From Bdellovibrionota bacterium FG-2 (GTDB lineage: Bacteria > Bdellovibrionota > UBA1018), in NCBI GenBank assembly GCA_051382305.1, contig JBBCAV010000194.1:1-11836 (forward strand): 11,836 nt of DNA, read 5' to 3'. This document shows positions 926-11,300 of this stretch, piece after piece. Within the stretch, counting starts at the first letter, position 1, and each line of letters begins with the position of its first letter. Position numbers and translations under genes: made by a program. The notes under the pieces are model-generated. The model was not told where the DNA came from, did no database searches, and was given only the letters and a program-made list of their open reading frames with translations.

Positions 926-2047
926 ATGGCCAACCTTAAGCTTCTCTCATCAAGCTGTCTCCTCATCATATCGATGCATGCACTCACTAATGCGAGCGCC
1001 GATGCAACAGTGGAGACCACTACTGCGAGTGATAAACTCTACGCTTTGAGCCTCTCGTATGTCTCCGAAACCAGTGGCGCGCTCCAAGGAGGGCTGGAAC
1101 GCAAAATAAACCTCACGGGAAACCTACTCATTGATGCTCGCTTTGATCTTGGTGCTATCACCCACTTAAGCGGCTTGAGCCTCTACGCCCAAGGCATTGG
1201 CATTCACGGAGATTCTTTGAGCAAATCCGTGGGAGATGTTCAGGTGTCCAGCAATATCGATGCGCCAAAAGCCGCACGAATTTACCAGGCTTGGTTACAA
1301 AAAGAATTTGCTGGGGGGGCCGTCTCACTTCTCGCCGGCATCCACGACCTGAACTCAGAATTCTATTCAACAGAAGCATCAAGAATATTCTTAAACAGCT
1401 CCTTTGGTGTTGGCTCTGATCTATCGCACACAGGAGCTAACGGACCTTCGATTTTTCCAGAACCCGGAATGGCCATTCGCGCGAAAATTCGCCCCATCAA
1501 TGATTGGGAAATCTCCACCGCGATGTATGACGGCAATCCTGGCAGCTCCCCTTGGACTTCTGAAGATGGTGGCTTGGGAATCCTCGAGCTCGCTCACTCT
1601 CAAAAAATCAATGACCGCGACGGTCGTTACGCAATCGCTGCCTGGGGCTATAGCGCACAAAAGCAGACTCGCGGAGCCTATTTTCTGGCCAATCAGAAGA
1701 TTTACTCCCCCACTTCGAACGACCCACGAGGCTTGAGCGCCTTTGTCAGGACAGGACTTAGTGATCGTGGATCCGTTTCCAGCTCTTGGTCTTCAGGGGT
1801 GAACTACACGGGCGCCATTCGGACGCGCGATGAAGATCAGATGGGTTTTGCGATTACGCAAGCCAAGGGCATTGGCGAAGAAGGCGAGGAGTTGGCGCGC
1901 GAAACGGTCCTCGAATTCACTTATCTCGGGAAAATCAAACCCTGGTTTAGCGTACAACCCGATTTCCAATGGATCCTCAATCCGGGAATGGATTCAACAG
2001 CTGTGCCTGCACTCGTCGGAGCCGTCCGCTTGCAGGTGGTGTTCTAA
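926..2047 (+). CDS. OprB-family (carbohydrate-selective porin family) outer-membrane porin, 373 aa
   Basis: AAAGGA RBS; N-terminal signal peptide (..LTNASA); OprB-type motifs GDVQVSSNID, DLNSEF, FLNSSFG, GPSIFP, VQPDFQWILNPG; alternating beta-strand pattern and C-terminal Phe (RLQVVF) typical of BAM substrates. Confidence 0.88.
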   Translation: MANLKLLSSSCLLIISMHALTNASADATVETTTASDKLYALSLSYVSETSGALQGGLERKINLTGNLLIDARFDLGAITHLSGLSLYAQGIGIHGDSLSKSVGDVQVSSNIDAPKAARIYQAWLQKEFAGGAVSLLAGIHDLNSEFYSTEASRIFLNSSFGVGSDLSHTGANGPSIFPEPGMAIRAKIRPINDWEISTAMYDGNPGSSPWTSEDGGLGILELAHSQKINDRDGRYAIAAWGYSAQKQTRGAYFLANQKIYSPTSNDPRGLSAFVRTGLSDRGSVSSSWSSGVNYTGAIRTRDEDQMGFAITQAKGIGEEGEELARETVLEFTYLGKIKPWFSVQPDFQWILNPGMDSTAVPALVGAVRLQVVF

Positions 2048-2415
2048 TGATGAAACAATTCAAATTTCGATCAATTACCCTGTGTTTTGCTATTTTATCT
2101 GCCGTTTGTCTTGACCCAACCCGGGGTTCCGCAAACGAACTTCATATTGTGGGTTTGGATAAAAACAACCAAACAACCAGTGTGAGCGTGCCGGAAACGG
2201 TTTATCGTGAAGCACTCAAACAAGTGATTGGTTCCGTGCATGGATCAGCGCTCAAATCCTTGAGCGCTAAATCCTCTGGCGATTGGATGTTAAGAACTGT
2301 GGGGGTTGGGATCACAGTGACCCTCGCGGCAGGCTTGGGAGAGATCGCAAGCGTGAGTGCGCAAAAGACGATTCGCTTGATCTACTCAAACAGCTGTAGC
2401 CCGATTTTGCCTTAG
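2047..2415 (+). CDS. Hypothetical exported protein, 122 aa, one helix/beta-hairpin module
   Basis: ATG overlaps the porin stop (TAATG, 2045-2049), implying translational coupling; alternative ATG at 2050. Basic N-terminus plus hydrophobic stretch (MMKQFKFRSITLCFAILSAVC..GSA) looks like a Sec signal. C-terminal half is similar to the modules in the next two genes. Confidence 0.75.
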   Translation: MMKQFKFRSITLCFAILSAVCLDPTRGSANELHIVGLDKNNQTTSVSVPETVYREALKQVIGSVHGSALKSLSAKSSGDWMLRTVGVGITVTLAAGLGEIASVSAQKTIRLIYSNSCSPILP

Positions 2416-2438
2416 CCTTTTTTATTAAGGAGTTGCCC

Positions 2439-3842
2439 ATGAAAACCAGAAATCTATTGATCGTACTCACACTCGTGTCTACAGGCCTTGGCGGATGCCG
2501 CCCTTCAAAGCCCTCCTCTGTGATTCCATCGGATTGGTACAACTTACCCAACACCGAGAACTCAGAGACACCCTCAGCTGCAAGCAAAGGCCTCACAAAT
2601 AACCTCAAAGAGAATTTTGATCTACATGCACAGATTCTTGCTGAAGCCACTCAAGACGGCGCCGCAGCCGCCTCTTCTGTTGAAGATCAGGTCCCATGGC
2701 ATTTAAGTGCCGTGCAAATGAGACTAGGCCTTACTGCGGATGGACTTTTGGGTCCTTTGCTTTTCGCCGGAACGGCTGCCGTACAAACCGTTTGGATGCC
2801 TACCCAAGGGGAAGGCAAAATCAACTCGACGGACTCAAACCTCACCCTCAAGGGAAACCCACGCTCTGCTAATCTGGATCGCCAATTAGAGCCCATGATT
2901 CAAAGTGCCCTGTCCTCGAAACTCATCCGAAATGAAACAAAATTCAGAAAAAACGTCCTTCGCATTGGCGAGCGCTTCAAAGCCGTCGCGGCCCGACTTT
3001 ATGATCTTCATAGCGTAAAATCAAAGTGGGTCGCCCAGAAGTTCAGGCTCAAAATGGGTTTTGACGCCTCTGGCGATGTTCTCCCTTTTGGAGCCTTGGG
3101 AGCCACGATCAGCTTAAGATTTGACTGGGATAAGGCCTCTACGGATACCGATCCAGCAGTTCAAGTTCCGGCCCCGTCTTTGGATCCACTGAGTGAAAAT
3201 CTCGGACAGTTCGTCACTGCCGTGGCCCACGATCTCAATGCGATTCAACCCGCCATCGATGAAGTTCAAACCAGCGGATTCAGTCTCGGAGGGATACGCA
3301 TTGGACTCGCCATCACCGGCAGTGGAGAAGTCGGTATTGCCAAAGCGCTCACTTCGGTTGCGGGCAGCATTGAATTTGAGCGCACCAATTCACTGCAGGC
3401 TTTCGCCATCAACCTAAACTCCTCGCTGCCAAAATTTAATCCTATTATGCCGAATTTTATAAAAGCACAGACTGTTTCTGCCGACAACTCAGACAAGGAT
3501 GACAATGCCCCGATTCTGATGATTGACGATGCTCCGGCGGCTCACACTTTCGATACGGCAAGGCGATTAGGAATCCAATTCAACGTCATCGCCTCAAACT
3601 CTCAAACGACTCCTGATAAAGTTGTTTACAAGATTGACCGCTCGCGTCTCCGAAAGGGCTTGAGCAAAGCCGTTCGAATCGGCGCATTCTTTGCTAAAAG
3701 TGCGGCTCAGGCCAAAGTGGGAAAATGGAAAATATCAGAAATTTCTACTGAATACGACGCCTCCATTTCTGGTGCCCTGGGACTCGTCACGGCAAGCGGA
3801 CAAGGCATTGTCGAGCTTGTTTTTTCGAATAATAGCTTCTAA
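2439..3842 (+). CDS. Hypothetical lipoprotein, 467 aa, four internal helix/beta-hairpin modules
   Basis: AAGGAG RBS at 2427-2432 with ATG at 2439; signal MKTRNLLIVLTLVSTGLGG-C with lipobox-like LGGC followed by a Pro/Ser-rich tether; long open frame; four-fold internal repetition. Confidence 0.85.
   Translation: MKTRNLLIVLTLVSTGLGGCRPSKPSSVIPSDWYNLPNTENSETPSAASKGLTNNLKENFDLHAQILAEATQDGAAAASSVEDQVPWHLSAVQMRLGLTADGLLGPLLFAGTAAVQTVWMPTQGEGKINSTDSNLTLKGNPRSANLDRQLEPMIQSALSSKLIRNETKFRKNVLRIGERFKAVAARLYDLHSVKSKWVAQKFRLKMGFDASGDVLPFGALGATISLRFDWDKASTDTDPAVQVPAPSLDPLSENLGQFVTAVAHDLNAIQPAIDEVQTSGFSLGGIRIGLAITGSGEVGIAKALTSVAGSIEFERTNSLQAFAINLNSSLPKFNPIMPNFIKAQTVSADNSDKDDNAPILMIDDAPAAHTFDTARRLGIQFNVIASNSQTTPDKVVYKIDRSRLRKGLSKAVRIGAFFAKSAAQAKVGKWKISEISTEYDASISGALGLVTASGQGIVELVFSNNSF
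2589..3830 (+). repeat. Four diverged protein-level repeats (amphipathic helix plus aromatic-bounded beta-hairpin) in the lipoprotein
   Basis: Approximate spans 2589-2798, 2940-3134, 3186-3383, 3642-3830. Hairpins: WHLSAVQMRLGLTADGLLGPLLFAGTAAVQTVW; WVAQKFRLKMGFDASGDVLPFGALGATISLRFDW; FSLGGIRIGLAITGSGEVGIAKALTSVAGSIEF; WKISEISTEYDASISGALGLVTASGQGIVELVF. Each is 33-34 aa with Gly at position 16. Confidence 0.7.
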
Positions 3843-3862
3843 TTGAGAAAGGAAATTTATCG

Positions 3863-4141
3863 ATGCGCACTCCAATGATTCTCATTCTTTTTTCACTTTT
3901 GACTCCTGCCCTCTCGCAAGCAGAGAGCCTCCCAGATTTAAGCAGCCACTTTAACGAGATAATCGAGAATGCCGATCATGCGTTTTCGACCCAGAGTTCC
4001 TCCCAGCAGGCTTGTGATTGGGAATTCAAAGCGTTCTATCTGAATATCGCCCCCCACATCTCCTTTGGAATCTCAGGGGTTTTGGATCTTACAATTTCCC
4101 CAGATATTGTGCTGATTTGGGAGAAAGTTGGACCGCATTAG
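3863..4141 (+). CDS. Hypothetical exported protein, 92 aa, one helix/beta-hairpin module
   Basis: AAAGGA RBS; signal peptide MRTPMILILFSLLTPALSQA; the mature part is essentially one module (helix DLSSHFNEIIENADHAF, hairpin WEFKAFYLNIAPHISFGISGVLDLTISPDIVLIW). Confidence 0.8.
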   Translation: MRTPMILILFSLLTPALSQAESLPDLSSHFNEIIENADHAFSTQSSSQQACDWEFKAFYLNIAPHISFGISGVLDLTISPDIVLIWEKVGPH

Positions 4142-4164: not shown

Positions 4165-4189
4165 AATTATGATACCGGTTCTCATTATC
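4165..4189. promoter_or_regulatory. Second Fur-type operator
   Basis: AATTATGATACCGGTTCTCATTATC is 19/25 identical to 852-876. 4171-4189 matches the Fur consensus at 14/19; 7-1-7 core TGATACCGGTTCTCA. Intergenic, upstream of the dtxR-feoA/feoB genes. Confidence 0.7.
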
Positions 4190-4249: not shown

Positions 4250-4951
4250 ATGAATGCCACCCAAAATACCGAAACCCCCACATTACCAAGCGCGCTCGAA
4301 GATACGCTTGAAACCCTCTTCCTGCTTTTGCGCGACGGCAAAGCGGCAAGCATCAAAGACATTGCTCGCGCGCGCGAAACGAACTTAAAAGACGTTTCGG
4401 CTGCTTTGGCCCAGCTCAAGGACCTAGGCCTAATTCAAGTCACACCGGCAGACACGCTAGCCCTCACTGCTGAGGGAGAAAGAACCGCGATCCGAACCTT
4501 CTCGCGCCACCGATTGCTTTTGAGACTTTTTGAGGAAATCTTGGCGATGCCCCCTGCGATCGCTGAAGCCAATGCCTGTGCCATGGAGCACTCACTTAAC
4601 GCCGAAGGGATGGATCACGTGGAAAAATTTATTGAGTTCGTTCGAAACACTCCTGAAGGGAGCAAGATTGCCGGAGACTTTCGCAAATTCGTAGACTCCA
4701 AACAAACAAGCAATGATCTAACGGTTGCGGATCTGAAGGCCGGACAACGTGCGATCGTAAAAGAAGTTCGCGGCCGCGGCGCAATCAGACAACGGCTCCT
4801 GGATATGGGCATTATGCCTGACACCCTTATCAAGGTAGAGCGAAGAGCTCCGGCTGGCGATCCAATCTGGGTTAGACTTCAAGGCGGTCAGATCTCGTTA
4901 CGTCGCAAAGAATCCGACGCCATCATAGTGACCCACGAAAAACTGCAATAG
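4250..4951 (+). CDS. DtxR/MntR-family metalloregulator fused to a C-terminal FeoA domain, 233 aa
   Basis: N-terminal LEDTLE..IKDIA..L..LGLI..LTAEG winged helix; metal-binding/dimerisation motifs RHRLL and ACAMEH; C-terminal FeoA signature DLKAGQ..RQRLLDMGI.P..APAGDPI.V..ISLRRKES. Directly upstream of feoB. Confidence 0.9.
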   Translation: MNATQNTETPTLPSALEDTLETLFLLLRDGKAASIKDIARARETNLKDVSAALAQLKDLGLIQVTPADTLALTAEGERTAIRTFSRHRLLLRLFEEILAMPPAIAEANACAMEHSLNAEGMDHVEKFIEFVRNTPEGSKIAGDFRKFVDSKQTSNDLTVADLKAGQRAIVKEVRGRGAIRQRLLDMGIMPDTLIKVERRAPAGDPIWVRLQGGQISLRRKESDAIIVTHEKLQ

Positions 4952-4984: not shown

Positions 4985-7153
4985 ATGGAACAAGATCTCA
5001 ATAAAATCCTCTCCCCCACCACAACCTCTCTAAAAAATGGCGCAGGCAAATCCTTGGACCAAACCAAGCCCATTAAAATCGCCCTTGCTGGGAATCCAAA
5101 TTCTGGAAAAACATCGATTTTTAACGCCCTCACGGGCTTGCGCCAACACGTGGGCAATTATCCTGGTGTCACTGTTGAAAAACGCGAAGGCGAGTACAAA
5201 GTAGGTTCAACTTCGTGCAGTGTCCTGGATCTGCCCGGCACCTATAGTTTAAACGGCTATTCACCCGAAGAGCAGATCGCGCAAGTCGAGCTGCTTAAGG
5301 GTGGGTTTGACGTCGTGATCGCGGTCATTGATTCAACGACGCTTAATCGAAGTCTTGTTTTTGTGTGTCAGCTCATGCAGCTGGGCGCGAATATCGTTCT
5401 TTGCCTGAACATGTCTGATGAAGCCAAAAAATCGGGTCAAGAACTGGACCTCAAACAGTTTGAGAAACTCTTAGGATTTCCTATTATTGAAACCGTCGCC
5501 CATCGTGGTATCGGGATGGACGCGCTCAAAGCAGCCGTCGTGAAGGCCTCAGCCACTCGCGCTCCTCAATCTCGCCTCGTCCTGGGCGATCGCTTAACAA
5601 TCGCGATTAAACGCATCACTGAAAAACTCTCAGGCAACAGCTCAGAAGTGAACGCTTGGCTCGCCATGCGACTTTTGCTTGACGACCCCGCAACCCTCCA
5701 GACCCTACGAGCACAAGGATTTGATGAAGCCATTAAAACAGCCGTTAAACTTCGCGCCGACATCGAGTCTGAAACGGGTCAGGATGTTGCACTTTTTGTG
5801 ATGTCCCAATACTACGGCTTTGTCGATGGCCTTCTTCGCGAAGTGATCACACGTCAACCCGTCGAAAATGCGCGAATCGTTTCCGACCGTATTGATTCGG
5901 TGTTGAGTCACCGCCTCCTGGGTCTCCCCTTCTTTGCCATTATTATGTACGCCGTGTTTTGGATTACGTTTAAGGGCGGCGAATTGCCTATGGATTGGAT
6001 TAAAGCGGGCGCAGAACTTCTTGGGAAATCTATTTCAGGTCTATGGCCGGTCGGCTCTGATTCCATCCTACGCTCCTTACTCGTCGACGGTATTATTGCA
6101 GGCGTAGGCGGGGTGATCGTATTTTTGCCAAACATTCTTTTGCTTTTCATGTGTCTCGCGTTTCTTGAAGACACGGGCTATATGGCGAGGGCGGCTTTTC
6201 TCATGGATCGCATGATGCATCTTTTTGGCTTACATGGGCGCAGTTTTATTCCCCTCATGAGTGGTTTCGGGTGCAGCGTTCCAGCCATCATGGCCACAAG
6301 GACCTTGGAGAACGAGCGGGATCGTTTAACCACGATGCTCGTGCTTCCGCTGATGTCTTGTGGTGCAAGACTCCCTATTTGGATGCTGCTCGTGCCTGCT
6401 TTTTTCGCGGCTCAACATCGAGCAGGGATATTGTGGCTCATTTATATGATCGGAATCGCGTTAGCCTTTGTGCTCGCGTTTCTCCTTCGCAATACCGTAC
6501 TCAAAGGCGAAGACGCTCCATTTGTGATGGAGCTACCCCCTTATCGATTGCCAACCCTCAAAGCCGTCTTCAATCGAATGGTCGAGAGAGCCTGGCTATA
6601 TCTTCAAAAAGCTGGCACGATCATTTTGGCCGTTTCAATTCTGATGTGGGTGCTCACGCGTTATCCACAAAAACAAAGTTTTGACATTGATGCAGCTGTC
6701 GCCTCTGGCCAAGTCTCTGGGCTCACTTCCGAGCAAATCGAACTGCGACGCAATTCAGAGTCGCTCGTTTATTCGGCCTCAGGGCGTGTGGGACACTTCA
6801 TCGAGCCCCTGATTAGACCTTTGGGTTTTGATTGGAAAATCGGCGTGGGGATTTTGGGCGCCTTTGCTGCAAAAGAAGTCTTCGTTGCCCAAATGGGCGT
6901 CATGTATGCGCTAGGCGGTGACACCAAAGATACAACCGATCTTCAGACAGCCCTAAAAGGGATGTACTCTACCAGAGTCGGATTCTCTTTGATTCTTTTC
7001 ATGCTCATTGCTACTCCCTGCATGGCAACGGTTGCCATCACGCGGCGAGAATCAGGCCGTTGGGGATGGGCGTTTCTGCAATTTGGAGGGCTCACGGCCA
7101 TCGCCTATGTGATTTCATTTTCCTTTTATACGATTTCGGGGTTTTTTGTATGA
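4985..7153 (+). CDS. feoB: Ferrous iron transport protein B, 722 aa
   Basis: G1 GNPNSGKT, G2 VGNYPGVTVE, G3 DLPG, G4 NMSD; membrane-domain motifs LEDTGYMARAAFLMD, GFGCSVP, MSCGARLP, FVMELPPYRLP, AKEVFV, TPCMAT. Confidence 0.98.
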   Translation: MEQDLNKILSPTTTSLKNGAGKSLDQTKPIKIALAGNPNSGKTSIFNALTGLRQHVGNYPGVTVEKREGEYKVGSTSCSVLDLPGTYSLNGYSPEEQIAQVELLKGGFDVVIAVIDSTTLNRSLVFVCQLMQLGANIVLCLNMSDEAKKSGQELDLKQFEKLLGFPIIETVAHRGIGMDALKAAVVKASATRAPQSRLVLGDRLTIAIKRITEKLSGNSSEVNAWLAMRLLLDDPATLQTLRAQGFDEAIKTAVKLRADIESETGQDVALFVMSQYYGFVDGLLREVITRQPVENARIVSDRIDSVLSHRLLGLPFFAIIMYAVFWITFKGGELPMDWIKAGAELLGKSISGLWPVGSDSILRSLLVDGIIAGVGGVIVFLPNILLLFMCLAFLEDTGYMARAAFLMDRMMHLFGLHGRSFIPLMSGFGCSVPAIMATRTLENERDRLTTMLVLPLMSCGARLPIWMLLVPAFFAAQHRAGILWLIYMIGIALAFVLAFLLRNTVLKGEDAPFVMELPPYRLPTLKAVFNRMVERAWLYLQKAGTIILAVSILMWVLTRYPQKQSFDIDAAVASGQVSGLTSEQIELRRNSESLVYSASGRVGHFIEPLIRPLGFDWKIGVGILGAFAAKEVFVAQMGVMYALGGDTKDTTDLQTALKGMYSTRVGFSLILFMLIATPCMATVAITRRESGRWGWAFLQFGGLTAIAYVISFSFYTISGFFV

Positions 7154-7353
7154 GTGGGAACATAATCGAACTAGCGGGAGTCGGCATAATTCTCGGAGGC
7201 ACTTCGTACTTTTTTGGAAAAAAGATATGGGGCAGCTTGCAAGGAGTGCCCGCCAAAAATCACAGTAATGCCAAGCCCGGCTGCGGTGGATGCAGCGGCT
7301 GCGGCTCCGCCCAAGCGATCCCTCCTGTAAAAACCAAGACGTCATGCCACTAA
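7150..7353 (+). CDS. FeoB-associated Cys-rich small membrane protein, 67 aa
   Basis: ATGA overlap with the feoB stop (7150-7153); single N-terminal hydrophobic segment followed by basic residues, GCGGCSGC motif and C-terminal CH. This is the usual architecture of the FeoB-associated Cys-rich family. Confidence 0.85.
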   Translation: MSGNIIELAGVGIILGGTSYFFGKKIWGSLQGVPAKNHSNAKPGCGGCSGCGSAQAIPPVKTKTSCH

Positions 7354-8000
7354 CTTCTACAGGAACTTCTTGGATTCGCTGGACCCTATATTTGGCCTGG
7401 TTCACGATTGGCTACAATCTACTCGAAGGAGTTGTATCAATCGGCTTTGGGCTTAACGATGAGTCTGTTGCCCTCGCGGGCTTTGGCGCGGATAGTCTCA
7501 TTGAAGTTGCGTCGGCCATTTTAGTTTTGTGGCGTTTCAGGGGCGAAGCCGGCCAAAAAGAGGGGTTATCCATCAATCGCGAACGCCAAACCACGCTGGG
7601 CATCGGTGTCTTATTTATCTTCTTGGCATTGCTCACCGCCCTCGCCTCTGCACTTCAGCTCAAGAGTGGCTCACACCCTTCGAGCACGCTTTCGGGTCTT
7701 GTGATATCGGCCGTGAGTTTGAGTTTCATGTTTTTTCTTTGGCAAGCCAAGAAAAAAGCCGCGCGCATTTTAAACAGTGCCACGGTCAGGAAGGACGCTG
7801 CTTGCTCCCTAGCCTGCATCAAATTGTCGATTATTCTGTTCTTCGGAAGTTTGGTTTATCTCGAATTTCCTGCGTTTTGGTGGATTGACTCAGTTGCAGG
7901 ACTTGGTCTAGCGCTTCTTATTGCAAAAGAAGGCTGGGAGACGGTGCGTACCGCCCGAAGGCCTGATTTTTCAGGGGGCTGTGGCTGCGCGTGTGACTAG
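7344..8000 (+). CDS. Cation transporter, CDF-like transmembrane domain only (TMEM163-like), 218 aa
   Basis: ATG 7344 overlaps the end of the upstream gene by 10 nt; about six hydrophobic segments; motifs YNLLEG, SVALAGFGADSLIE, LWRF, WWIDSVAGL, KEGWE; no cytoplasmic CDF C-terminal domain; ends GGCGCACD. Confidence 0.85.
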   Translation: MPLTSTGTSWIRWTLYLAWFTIGYNLLEGVVSIGFGLNDESVALAGFGADSLIEVASAILVLWRFRGEAGQKEGLSINRERQTTLGIGVLFIFLALLTALASALQLKSGSHPSSTLSGLVISAVSLSFMFFLWQAKKKAARILNSATVRKDAACSLACIKLSIILFFGSLVYLEFPAFWWIDSVAGLGLALLIAKEGWETVRTARRPDFSGGCGCACD

Positions 8001-8372: not shown

Positions 8373-11300
8373 TATTTTTCTCCGCCGATAGGCAGACTGA
8401 CGGTAAAGGTGGTGCCCTTCTTCTGTTCACTTTTGACTTCGACTATCGCTTTATGCGATTCAATAATCCCATGTACGATAGACATCCCAAGCCCTGTGCC
8501 TTGTCCAACAGGCTTGGTCGTAAAAAAAGGTTCAAAAACTTTTTTTCTCACCTCATCACTCATGCCAATGCCATTATCAATTACTTCAACAAGGACATTG
8601 TTGCCCTCACATTTTGAGCTGATCGAAAGTCTCTTGCTGTAGGGCAAATTGCCGAGATCGCACTCAGTTTCCATTGAGTCAAGGGCGTCCCTCGCATTAG
8701 TAAGCAGGTTGATCCAGATTTGCTCCAGCCGAAATGGATCGCCGTTGATCCTGGGACATAAACTGCTCAGATCCTTTGCGATCTCAATACCGCGAAGCCT
8801 GAGCTGCTCCCCCATCAGCATAAGCGCGGATTCAATAGTCTCATTGATATCGATTTGACGCAGATTCAGAACTTCCTGCCTAGCAAAAGTACGAACATGT
8901 TTAATCACTTTCGTGCACCGCTCGACAGAAAGCGAGATGTCCTTGAGCGAAGTTTCAAGCTCCGCATCGGTCAGTAGATTTTTTTGTTTCATTTTCCTGA
9001 TCGCATGGACTGCTAAGGAGATGCCAGCCATCGGCTGATTCATTTCGTGCGCCATACCAGCAGACATCTCACCCAAAGTGGACAACTTCGATGATTGAAA
9101 GAGTTGGGCTTGTAGATCTTTCTCTTTTTGCTCTGAGTTTACAAGCTCAGTATTGTCGCGCACAGTGGCTATGAGTATTGATTCAGCCCCTCTCGGAATA
9201 CGGGTCAAGCGCACTTCAGCCGGGAACGATTCGCCATCAAGACGGGTGTGGGTCCATTGAAAAAAATGTTTCCCATCTTTCAAAGCCATCTCGATCATGG
9301 CCATTGCTTTCTGAGCCGATAGAGCACCATCGGGTTGATGTTCCGGCGATAGAACCCATGGAGGCGCAGCCGTAAAGGCCTCTACCGTAGGTGCTCTAAA
9401 CATCTTGAGCGTTGCTTCGTTCGCAGCGGCAAATCTCCAGGTCGGAGGCTCCAAGGTCATAATTGCATCCGATGTATGATTGAAAATAGTACGATGCTTT
9501 TCTTCGCTCTCCTTTAGCTGCATTTCCTTCTGTTTTATCTCAGTAATATCCTGAATAGTGCCCCGCAGCCTCACAACTTTCCCAGCAGGATCACGCAGTG
9601 GTTCGCAGATTGTGATAATGGTTCTTTCGCTACCGTCCGGACGATTGAGGCGCAACTCCATATTATAGGGAGTACCATTCTGGAAGGCTTCCCCCACCGC
9701 AGCGTCAAATCGCTGAAAATCGGCTGGGTGAATATATTTCTGGTGGTCACTATAGCGAGGCGGGCCAAGTGCGGGATCCAAACCCCAGATGTCAAACATA
9801 CCTTTTGTCCATTCAGGCTGCTGACTCACCGGATCGTAGGTCCAACTGCCGATAGCTGCCAAACGTTGCGCCTCTTCCAGTTCCAAATCTCTCTCTCGCA
9901 GCTTGTCCTCGGATTTTCTCCGCTCAGAGATATCTTCATGAATCGCAACCCAGACCTTGCCATATGTTGAATGCTCAAAAGTCTTGACAGTAGCTAGACA
10001 CCAAAAAGGCAATCCATTTTTCCTCACGTTCTGAACTTCGCCCCTCCACTCTGAGCTACGCACAAGGGCTGATATAATATGTTTTTCTGTTTCTTTAGAT
10101 TCTCGACTCACATCATTAAAGTTCAACACACCCACCTGTTGACCAATGAGTTCGCCAGTTTCGTAACCGAAAAGAGTTTCAAACTTTGGATTTACATACA
10201 CGATTCTCAAATCGTGCGCACTTGTAATAACAATACCATCGGTTAGGTTGTTCAGAATTAGGCTTTGCATCCTAAGCTCTGATTCAGCTTTCTTACGTTC
10301 GGTGATGTCCCGCGAAACGGTGAAAACATGCGGCACACCGTCTAGAAATATTCGAGAAGCATGAGCCTCCACATCAATCAAAGAACCATCCTTACGCTTG
10401 TGGGTCGTCTCGACCTTCAGCTCCTTACCTGCAAGTATGCTGGCGAGAACCTCCCGAACGTCCTCTAGGGAGAAACTGGGATTAACGTCCGCCGGAGTCA
10501 TCGACAGCAATTCTTCTCGTGTGTAACCGAGCTGACGACAAGTTGTTTCATTGACCTCAACAAAGCGCCCTCGTTCATTCAACACGTGGACATCATCGAC
10601 CGCTTGATCGAATAGAGCATGGAATCTGGCCTCGCTGTTCTTGAGAGACTCCGTCATTCGCTTGCGTTCGGTAATATCTTTGAAAAACCCAACAAGACAA
10701 GTTCTGCCGTTAATCTTCATTGCCGCTGAACAGATATCAGCGAAAACAATCGACCCATTCTTCGTTAAACAAGGAATACTTTCCGCTACTTTTTGTTCTC
10801 CTCTGGCCGATTTTTCAAATTGAGAAACCACAAAAGCCAATTGATCCTGAGGGTGGATTCCTAAAATATCCTTTTTTAATAATTCGTCTTGAGAATAGCC
10901 AAGAAGTAGAATCATAGCAGGATTGGCACCGACTACAGCCTTTGTTTCAATATCCGCAATCAATATGCCGTCGGGATTATTCTCAAAAAGTGATCTGAAT
11001 TTTTCCTCCCGATCCAGCAGTTCTTGCCTTGACACAGTTGAATATTTTAGCTCCTCAGAGAGCATATTTAAGCCAACAGCAAGAGTGTCAAATACACTCC
11101 CGTCTCCGACGACAGGGAGAATTTTTCCGAAATCCAATCCCGCAATAGAAGTGATCATGTCAAGAGCAGCATCTAAGTGGGCTTGGGCTTGGGCTTGGGC
11201 TTGGGCTTGGGCTTGGGCTTGGGCTTGGGCTTGGGCTTGCAATGACTGGGCGACCCCATTGAGCTTGTCAACAATAGAATCCAAAATATTTTTTGAATAA

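Follow-up and report, generated by a model that had tools for sequence, protein, structure and literature searches.

Three adjacent exported proteins of Bdellovibrionota share a Pepco-type helix-hairpin module and are predicted to form a twelve-stranded barrel

Introduction

In the genome of Bdellovibrionota bacterium FG-2, three genes of exported proteins lie between an OprB-family porin gene and genes of ferrous iron uptake. What do these three proteins build, and does it have to do with the uptake of metal, as their neighbours suggest? The window considered here is the whole analysed stretch of DNA, 11,836 nucleotides of contig JBBCAV010000194.1 (assembly GCA_051382305.1). The reading that we favour, with a probability of about 0.5 for the explanation as a whole, is that the three proteins, called A, B and C below, would form an exported machine of the Pepco type, a membrane pore of 12 strands that would be controlled by Fur in this lineage.

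Organization of the locus

All genes described here lie on the forward strand. The first of them (926–2047) encodes an OprB-family porin of 373 residues, which matches Pfam OprB (PF04966) with an E-value of 6.6e-39 over profile positions 7–372 of 372. At the gene junction, the stop codon of the porin overlaps the start of protein A (122 residues, 2047–2415), which consists of a Sec leader, an amphipathic helix, one β-hairpin (residues 80–113 of the translation, nt 2284–2385) and a short Pro-containing tail. Protein B (2439–3842) is a 467-residue lipoprotein with four helix-plus-hairpin modules, identified with Pfam Pepco, AlphaFold2 and alignments. Its hairpins, placed by translation and model, occupy nt 2697–2795, 3027–3128, 3279–3377 and 3726–3824, or residues 89–121, 199–232, 283–315 and 432–464 when numbered from a TTG codon at 2433. 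The ATG at 2439, with an AAGGAG motif 6 nt upstream of it, is a likelier start of protein B than this TTG. Protein C (92 residues, 3863–4141) is again made up of a Sec leader, a helix and one β-hairpin (residues 53–86 of the translation, nt 4019–4120). It is followed by a DtxR-type regulator fused to a FeoA domain (4250–4951; Pfam FeoA, 2.5e-20; Fe_dep_repr_C, 5.5e-15) and by the ferrous iron transporter FeoB (4985–7153; TIGR00437 feoB, E-value 4.9e-171). A promoter and terminator scan returned three promoter-like sites against 3.8 expected, which is not above chance, and no terminator between the genes of protein C and DtxR–FeoA, so that the argument for co-transcription is the spacing of the genes.

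The initial annotation had all three proteins exported, and N-terminal export signals can be recognized in each of them: by eye, proteins A and C begin with Sec-type leaders and protein B with a lipobox, L-G-G-C. A strict lipobox is present in 46 of 174 B-family proteins, and membrane tethering is thus not a trait of the B family; for the same reason, the assignment of B as a lipoprotein across its family is ruled out. The short, Pro-containing tail of protein A is conserved, and many C homologues carry a Trp/Tyr-containing tail. No cleavage site can be inferred in the tails of A or C from the homologue alignments, and the alignments of A, B and C contain no conserved BAM-type signal at the chain ends.

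Six homologous modules in three proteins

Translation places one module in A, four in B and one in C, as had been proposed from the DNA alone. In its AlphaFold2 model (pLDDT 74.2, pTM 0.72), protein B contains four long hairpins, with a helix ahead of each and strands at residues 87–101/108–121, 197–215/218–231, 281–298/301–315 and 434–447/450–464 (numbered from the ATG). A natural fusion of B and C is predicted to fold into five such helix-then-long-hairpin units (pLDDT 68). The two monomer models, with pLDDTs of 74 and 68, are of moderate confidence only.

The profiles of the modules were taken from alignments of 31 A, 31 B and 24 C homologues. The pairwise comparison by hhalign suggested at the outset finds all 15 module pairs related, with probabilities of 73.3–96.6% and P-values of 3e-5 to 6e-10, and in 12 of the 15 pairs the helix and the hairpin are aligned in register over 63–71 columns. 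The module of protein A matches those of B and C at 92.7–96.5%, and that of protein C matches A at 96.5% and B1–B4 at 73.3–93.4%. Plain HMMs of A and C also match each other and the modules of B. The scores of the real pairs (26.3–48.3) all exceed the top score of 300 column-shuffled nulls (17.1), and 14 of the 15 reversed-template controls stay at or below 29%, the exception being A against reversed C (83.8% over 18 columns). The segment pattern noted by eye, with aromatic residues at both ends, alternating hydrophobic residues and a glycine near the turn, holds across the 174 B-family sequences: conservation reaches 99–100% for the aromatic residues at the flanks and 94–100% for the turn glycines, and hydrophobic residues in the strands alternate with charged or polar ones.

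Could this be a chance resemblance of unrelated amphipathic hairpins? The one high reversed control would fit such an explanation, as would the weak scores of single modules against Pfam Pepco (E-values of 9e-4 and 0.038). The shuffled nulls, all of which lie below all 15 pairs, the in-register alignment of helix plus hairpin and the conserved gene order described below speak against it, and we give it next to no weight. At the level of sequence comparison, it is confirmed that proteins A, B and C carry 1+4+1 homologous helix-plus-β-hairpin modules.

Relation to Pepco

The initial annotation saw a likeness to the Trypco and Pepco domains of conflict systems. For Pepco this is borne out by protein B, which scores 37.6 bits with Pfam Pepco (PF24393; the domain also goes by the names Trypco1/Trypco2), where the cut-off is 27 (E-value 3.3e-9), the sole Pepco match in the genome. 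Of its 31 homologues, 21 match as well (best E-value 1.3e-14), and each of the four module positions is matched by the Pepco model in some homologue. Direct matches to Pfam Pepco, Trypco1 or Trypco2 are found in none of 31 A and none of 24 C family members, and the tie of A and C to Pepco runs only through their hhalign matches to the modules of B. This link stays transitive, because a search for canonical single-module Pepco with the B3-module alignment gave none of 732 candidates an E-value of 0.01 or better. The nearest clusters in the ESM Atlas are of Trypco2 (score 0.80), which is a lead only, since a third of shuffled proteins reach the same score.

What Pepco does has been described for anti-phage systems. 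According to the main text of a recent preprint, SsPepco of Streptomyces subrutilus is a pore-forming toxin that assembles into SDS-resistant barrels of 9–10 subunits with a hydrophobic outside and a charged lumen; canonical Pepco barrels are pre-assembled and inactive until cleavage removes the C-terminal tail after a conserved isoleucine (10.1101/2025.11.14.688446). The canonical protein is a single module of ~117 residues whose gene has as its neighbour a fusion of a phage sensor with a protease of the trypsin or caspase type, and in the parts of these sources that we draw on its only described role is that of a protease-triggered suicide pore (10.1101/2025.11.14.688446; PMC7159879). The main text of the preprint (10.1101/2025.11.14.688446) does not mention signal peptides, the periplasm, lipoproteins, tandem modules or Bdellovibrio, and its supplement could hold exported or tandem homologues. 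As signal peptides and the periplasm do not figure in that text, canonical Pepco presumably stays in the cytoplasm.

The modules of A, B and C resemble Pepco in that an amphipathic helix precedes a long β-hairpin, hairpins lie side by side to form a barrel and strands alternate hydrophobic and charged residues. They differ in being exported, in being distributed as 1+4+1 over three genes, in lacking a nearby protease and in their predicted assembly, a hetero-oligomer of six hairpins rather than a homo-oligomer of 9 or 10. The absence of a protease, remarked upon from the start, extends beyond the window: Pfam and TIGR profiles detect none among the genes of the window, and around 28 cassettes each peptidase family is confined to at most one of 107 neighbours.

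Predicted assembly of the three chains

A model of A, B and C with one copy of each chain has an ipSAE of 0.86, compared to 0.00 for the best of three controls. Among solved complexes 58 of 80 attain this mark, and among mismatched pairs 2 of 110, a calibration that is only rough here, where custom alignments and three chains were used. At least 80% of the contacts agree between runs, and the pLDDT of the partner is at least 72. In the model, residues 110–113 of A run antiparallel to residues 87–93 of B, residues 82–87 of A pair with residues 82–86 of C, and A is also touched by residues 451–453 in the last strand of B4. The hairpin of A is thereby modelled between the first strand of B and the last strand of C, and contacts also form among the helices of A, B1 and C. 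This placement of the hairpin implies a closed ring of 12 strands, which is deduced from the contact list and whose B4–C junction lies outside the score.

When the profiles of B and of the B3 module are searched against the sequences of the PDB, no match is significant, the best match being an 89-residue chain, JUBO2 (E-value 0.056), on which nothing relevant was found in the literature. Foldseek searches of the PDB with the models of B and of the B–C fusion give no match at an E-value of 1e-3 or better and TM-scores of at most 0.11. As no solved relative exists, the score of the three-chain model does not reflect a memorized structure. The 1:1:1 barrel of 12 strands that had been put forward fits both this model (0.86) and the natural B–C fusions, and the barrel assembly is supported by models.

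Several A–B–C units might instead join into a larger ring with a barrel of at least 24 strands, nearer to the 18–20 strands of the Pepco 9- and 10-mers. The rings described in the Pepco preprint hold 9–10 hairpins, and a larger ring could not appear in a model that held a single copy of each chain. On the other hand, with one copy of each chain A already links C to B1 with high confidence, and the count of six modules is constant in the 30 complete cassettes. We regard a larger ring as distinctly improbable.

A conserved cassette and its genomic context

In all 31 loci, the gene of A directly precedes that of B. The gene of C follows B as a separate gene in 24 loci and is fused to B in six, with the C-equivalent module at the C-terminus of B; the remaining locus stops at the end of its contig. 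The total of six modules, split or fused, is kept in all 30 complete cassettes. Among family representatives, B–C fusions account for 6 of 151. The A–B–C trio is a fixed cassette in Bdellovibrionota, found in 35 of 401 genomes of the phylum and in 2–4 paralogous copies in some of them. The family comprises at least 531 sequence clusters; source names among its members include Oligoflexia, Bacteriovoracales and Bacteriovoracaceae, and every source annotation among the members listed reads ‘hypothetical protein’. A related-locus scan with a single protein returned one locus.

Among 107 neighbours of 28 cassettes, no family recurs more than three times. OprB and Feo families each occur three times, all in three close genomes, and of the 27 loci with wide flanks, three closely related ones have the porin/Feo neighbourhood. 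A general tie of the cassette to porin and Feo genes is ruled out by this confinement; outside the three close genomes the cassette stands alone amid unrelated genes.

Might the cassette then be a weapon, a heterotrimeric barrel that leaves the cell, by release or by transfer on contact, and enters the membrane of a prey or competitor cell? Bdellovibrionota hold many predators, the cassette has spread through them, some genomes hold several paralogues, and the lipid anchor is missing from most family members. The Pepco family is, moreover, one of pore-forming toxins, the canonical form of which kills its own cell from inside according to the preprint. Against this stand the neighbourhoods, which show no recurrent secretion system, immunity gene or protease, the restriction to 35 genomes, and the window itself, where B is lipid-anchored and the operon resembles one of nutrient uptake. 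We consider a delivered weapon improbable.

In the window, iron may control the cassette. A Fur-box-like operator, a perfect 13-nt inverted repeat with a 3-nt spacer (850–878), lies ~50 nt upstream of the porin start. It has two mismatches to the 19-bp E. coli-type Fur consensus and is the best match to that consensus in the genome, with no match in the reversed control. Two syntenic relatives (loci L012 and L013) have a Fur-like site at the equivalent position. A weaker site with four mismatches (4171–4189) separates the genes of protein C and DtxR–FeoA and recurs in the same relatives (four mismatches in L012, five in L013). Three Fur-family proteins are encoded in the genome, which thus combines a promoter palindrome with Fur proteins, as a putative Fur operon would. 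Before cassettes in other contexts, Fur-like sites are weak or missing altogether: none has fewer than four mismatches, the best one (four) being next to A in locus L051. Local iron control through the predicted palindrome is plausible, and a role in metal uptake is suggested by this local context.

Discussion

We propose that A, B and C would be one exported machine of six homologous Pepco-type units, in each of which a β-hairpin of ~33 residues comes after an amphipathic helix. The chains would assemble 1:1:1 in the hairpin order A–B1–B2–B3–B4–C, with the hairpins closing into an antiparallel barrel of 12 strands and all six helices at one end. One face of the strands is hydrophobic and the other charged, as in Pepco barrels, and the most likely activity would therefore be that of a pore or channel inserted into an envelope membrane. 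The lipid anchor of B would tether the machine in this organism, probably to the outer membrane. The cassette would have come to lie, in this lineage, behind an OprB porin with a Fur-type operator and ahead of feoAB, and it would be expressed under iron scarcity. From these features we infer membrane insertion, location, iron control and any transport role.

The same chains could form a soluble periplasmic α/β assembly, a scaffold, chaperone or ligand binder whose helices permanently cover the hydrophobic face. An amphipathic helix is kept in every module, the helices of A, B1 and C are in mutual contact in the model, the chain ends lack a conserved BAM-type signal, and canonical Pepco barrels, as the preprint's main text has it, exist pre-assembled and inactive before cleavage. 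What argues for a membrane is the hydrophobic stretch of 9–11 residues on one face with its conserved aromatic ends, which is membrane-like, and the action on membranes that the preprint describes for the homologous Pepco family. A soluble assembly seems unlikely to us, if worth keeping in mind. The alternation of hydrophobic and charged residues, taken by itself, would fit a soluble assembly with helices over the hydrophobic face as well.

The most far-reaching version of the membrane pore would be a new type of self-assembling outer-membrane channel, in which three exported chains with an immune pore-toxin fold form a 12-stranded hetero-barrel without the usual insertion machinery and, induced by iron starvation in this lineage, pass ferrous iron or another small solute on towards Feo. 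It is a speculative extension, and we think it improbable in this complete form.

Barrels of hairpins from several chains are known elsewhere. In α-haemolysin and the leukocidins, one hairpin per subunit contributes to the membrane barrel, sometimes from two different chains; their barrels have 14–16 strands and are joined to soluble cap and rim domains of large size. The TolC family and the anchors of trimeric autotransporters are 12-stranded barrels made by three chains, and CsgG is a lipid-anchored lipoprotein channel; all are homo-oligomers. The predicted A–B–C barrel would resemble the former in being built of hairpins from multiple chains and the latter in being an outer-membrane barrel to which several chains contribute hairpins. 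It differs from α-haemolysin and the leukocidins, to which PDB sequence and Foldseek searches give no sequence or fold match, and from the homo-oligomeric TolC, autotransporter and CsgG barrels, whose folds are unrelated. An autotransporter β-domain appears at rank 16 of the Foldseek matches and is not significant (E-value 0.063, TM-score 0.08).

No published description of the cassette was found in the literature on Pepco and Trypco or on pore-forming lipoproteins of Bdellovibrio. The cassette is a variant of a known building block, that of the Pepco type, which is reused here in a different manner: it is exported, occurs four times in one chain, is distributed over three genes with a constant total of six hairpins and has no protease beside it. 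Small β-barrels closed by three different chains are rare, and the predicted ring, if real, would be one of them. It would also be a candidate channel of the envelope, with an assembly that is open to study through three small genes.

Gene organization of the locus

On its forward strand the window encodes, one after another, an OprB-family porin (926–2047, Pfam E = 6.6e-39), the 122-residue protein A (2047–2415, its start overlapping the porin stop), the 467-residue lipoprotein B (2439–3842, ATG start, lipobox L-G-G-C), the 92-residue protein C (3863–4141), a DtxR-type regulator fused to FeoA (4250–4951), FeoB (4985–7153), a small Cys-rich membrane ORF and a short CDF-like protein. The regulator consists of a DtxR/MntR-type winged-helix and metal-binding domain followed by a C-terminal FeoA domain. 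The small ORF (7150–7353, 67 residues) overlaps the end of feoB; its product has a single hydrophobic helix and the Cys-rich sequence C-G-G-C-S-G-C-G. It resembles FeoB-associated Cys-rich membrane proteins, though an NCBIfam search gave no hit with E ≤ 0.01. The 236-residue product of 7290–8000, a cation-efflux-like (cation-diffusion-facilitator, CDF) membrane protein, matches the CDF profile in the membrane part only (positions 70–193 of 198); its C-terminal tail is rich in Cys. The opposite strand carries genes for a response regulator and for a 1009-residue PAS histidine kinase with a run of some 13 Gln-Ala repeats close to the N-terminus (window about 11150–11230), and a divergent gene of about 143 residues (280–711) with a weak rubrerythrin-like match (E = 0.05), which lies beside the porin gene in the closest relative too.

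A, B and C are built from six homologous modules

Translation places all six helix-plus-hairpin segments named in the initial annotation where it had located them, one in A, four in B (B1–B4) and one in C. The AlphaFold2 model of B, built with 31 homologues (pLDDT 74.2, pTM 0.72), contains four long hairpins with a helix before each. Alignments of the helix and hairpin at each of the six module positions were cut from 31 A, 31 B and 24 C homologues and compared using hhalign. All 15 module pairs align with probabilities of 73.3–96.6%, and 12 of these alignments span 63–71 columns. With reversed templates, 14 of the 15 pairs stay at or below 29%, and one reaches 83.8% over 18 columns. The top score among 300 column-shuffled nulls is 17.1 versus 26.3–48.3 for the real pairs. 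Plain HMMs made from A or C match each other's proteins and single B modules. These profile comparisons confirm the repeat proposed in the initial annotation and establish the six modules as homologous.

Six modules in every complete cassette examined

A word-indexed protein search finds two close relatives of B, and the B profile retrieves 531 clusters with E ≤ 1e-3, of which 366 reach E ≤ 1e-30. Among the 150 profile matches listed, each is a single stretch covering most of the profile, in proteins of 299–547 residues. In genome searches, B was located in 7 of 61 relatives; across the phylum, 35 of 401 genomes have it. Named homologues belong to Oligoflexia, Bacteriovoracales or Bacteriovoracaceae and are always annotated as 'hypothetical protein'. 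Literature searches of main texts returned no description of the A-B-C cassette.

In each of the 31 loci examined, the gene immediately upstream of B is of the A type. Directly downstream, 24 loci have a separate C-type gene (12 recognized by a seed HMM and 12 by position, size, leader and pattern, all 24 alignable), six have the C module fused to the end of B, and one is truncated at a contig edge. All 30 complete cassettes thus have six modules in total. Such B–C fusions account for 6 of 151 family representatives, and the model of one natural fusion contains a fifth helix and hairpin (hairpin pLDDT 70–87). The genome of one relative (G018) carries two cassettes, a split one in a porin–Feo operon (L013) and one with C and B fused that adjoins a DnaB-type helicase gene (L017). 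Many C-type proteins and B–C fusions (loci L023–L035; fused L015 and L016) share a conserved tail, P-x-G-W-x-x-Y-[KR]-P, which the C of the window lacks.

Relation to Pepco

The initial annotation had guessed at a Pepco-like family, and the guess is borne out: B matches Pfam Pepco (PF24393) with 37.6 bits (cut-off 27), as do 21 of 31 B homologues (best E 1.3e-14). A weak Trypco1 match is found in two of the 31. Of the isolated modules, module 3 (E = 9e-4) and module 4 (E = 0.038) score against Pepco and the other four pieces give nothing; in other B homologues the model settles on module position 1, 2, 3 or 4. No direct Pfam Pepco match is found in 31 A or 24 C proteins. The A-B-C locus is the sole Pepco match of this genome.

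Pepco and Trypco were defined (PMC7159879) as small proteins encoded beside trypsin-type peptidases in conflict systems. In a 2025 preprint (10.1101/2025.11.14.688446), SsPepco (117 residues) is reported to form detergent-resistant β-barrels of 9–10 subunits; amphipathic helices sit at the base of these barrels, the outside is hydrophobic and the lumen charged, and they become toxic pores once a protease cuts off the tail.

Hairpin chemistry and export

Among 174 B-family sequences, a conserved aromatic residue marks either end of the hairpins (99–100% in module 1), the turns have conserved glycines, and hydrophobic and charged residues alternate over 9–11 residues per strand. The hairpins of A and C follow this pattern too. 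It suits a barrel that is hydrophobic on one surface and charged on the other, like the one modelled for SsPepco, and is compatible with a hydrophobic face turned either toward lipid or toward the amphipathic helices. B of the window and its close relatives have a strict lipobox, yet only 46 of the 174 family members do; in A it is found in 7 of 31.

Predicted assembly into a barrel

The complex of mature B, C and A was predicted with one copy per chain, using our own alignments and A as the scored partner. The ipSAE values are 0.84, 0.87 and 0.86, and all three controls give 0.00. In the calibration of the method, 58 of 80 solved complexes but also 2 of 110 mismatched pairs attain this mark; the calibration is only roughly valid here because our own alignments and three chains were used. 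At least 80% of contacts are common to the runs (partner pLDDT 72–74). PDB sequence and structure searches found no solved relative, so the score is not recall of a known complex.

In the least-error contacts, residues 110–113 of A pair antiparallel with residues 87–93 of B (the first strand of module 1), and residues 82–87 of A pair antiparallel with residues 82–86 of C (its last strand). A is further contacted by residues 451–453 of B, in the last strand of module 4, and there are mutual contacts between the helices of A, B1 and C. Together with the natural B4-to-C fusions, these contacts suggest a ring order A-B1-B2-B3-B4-C, in which all helices would lie at one end. The barrel put forward in the initial annotation is thereby supported by modelling and gene fusions.

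Iron context and neighbourhood

A perfect 13-nt inverted repeat with a 3-nt spacer (850–878), about 50 nt upstream of the porin gene, resembles a Fur box. It has two mismatches to the 19-bp Fur consensus and is the best of only three sites with three or fewer mismatches in the 4.3-Mb assembly, where the reversed consensus yields no such sites. As a 25-nt pattern, the repeat is unique in the genome at up to three mismatches. The genome has three Fur-family genes. Both syntenic relatives have a Fur-like site in the equivalent position (with 1 and 4 mismatches), and a weaker one precedes the DtxR-FeoA gene in all three loci. A scan for promoters and terminators gave no signal above chance. Porin-A-B-C is probably one iron-repressed unit.

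The 107 genes located at most two positions from one of 28 cassettes include no recurrent peptidase family, in agreement with the initial remark that a protease is missing, and no Pfam family is represented more than three times among them. OprB and Feo families occur three times each, only in the window and the two relatives closest to it. With no recurrent neighbours and a single Pepco locus, the cassette is self-contained, and its placement in a porin–Feo operon is a lineage feature. Metal uptake, the role initially suggested for A-B-C, is a tentative reading drawn from this local context.
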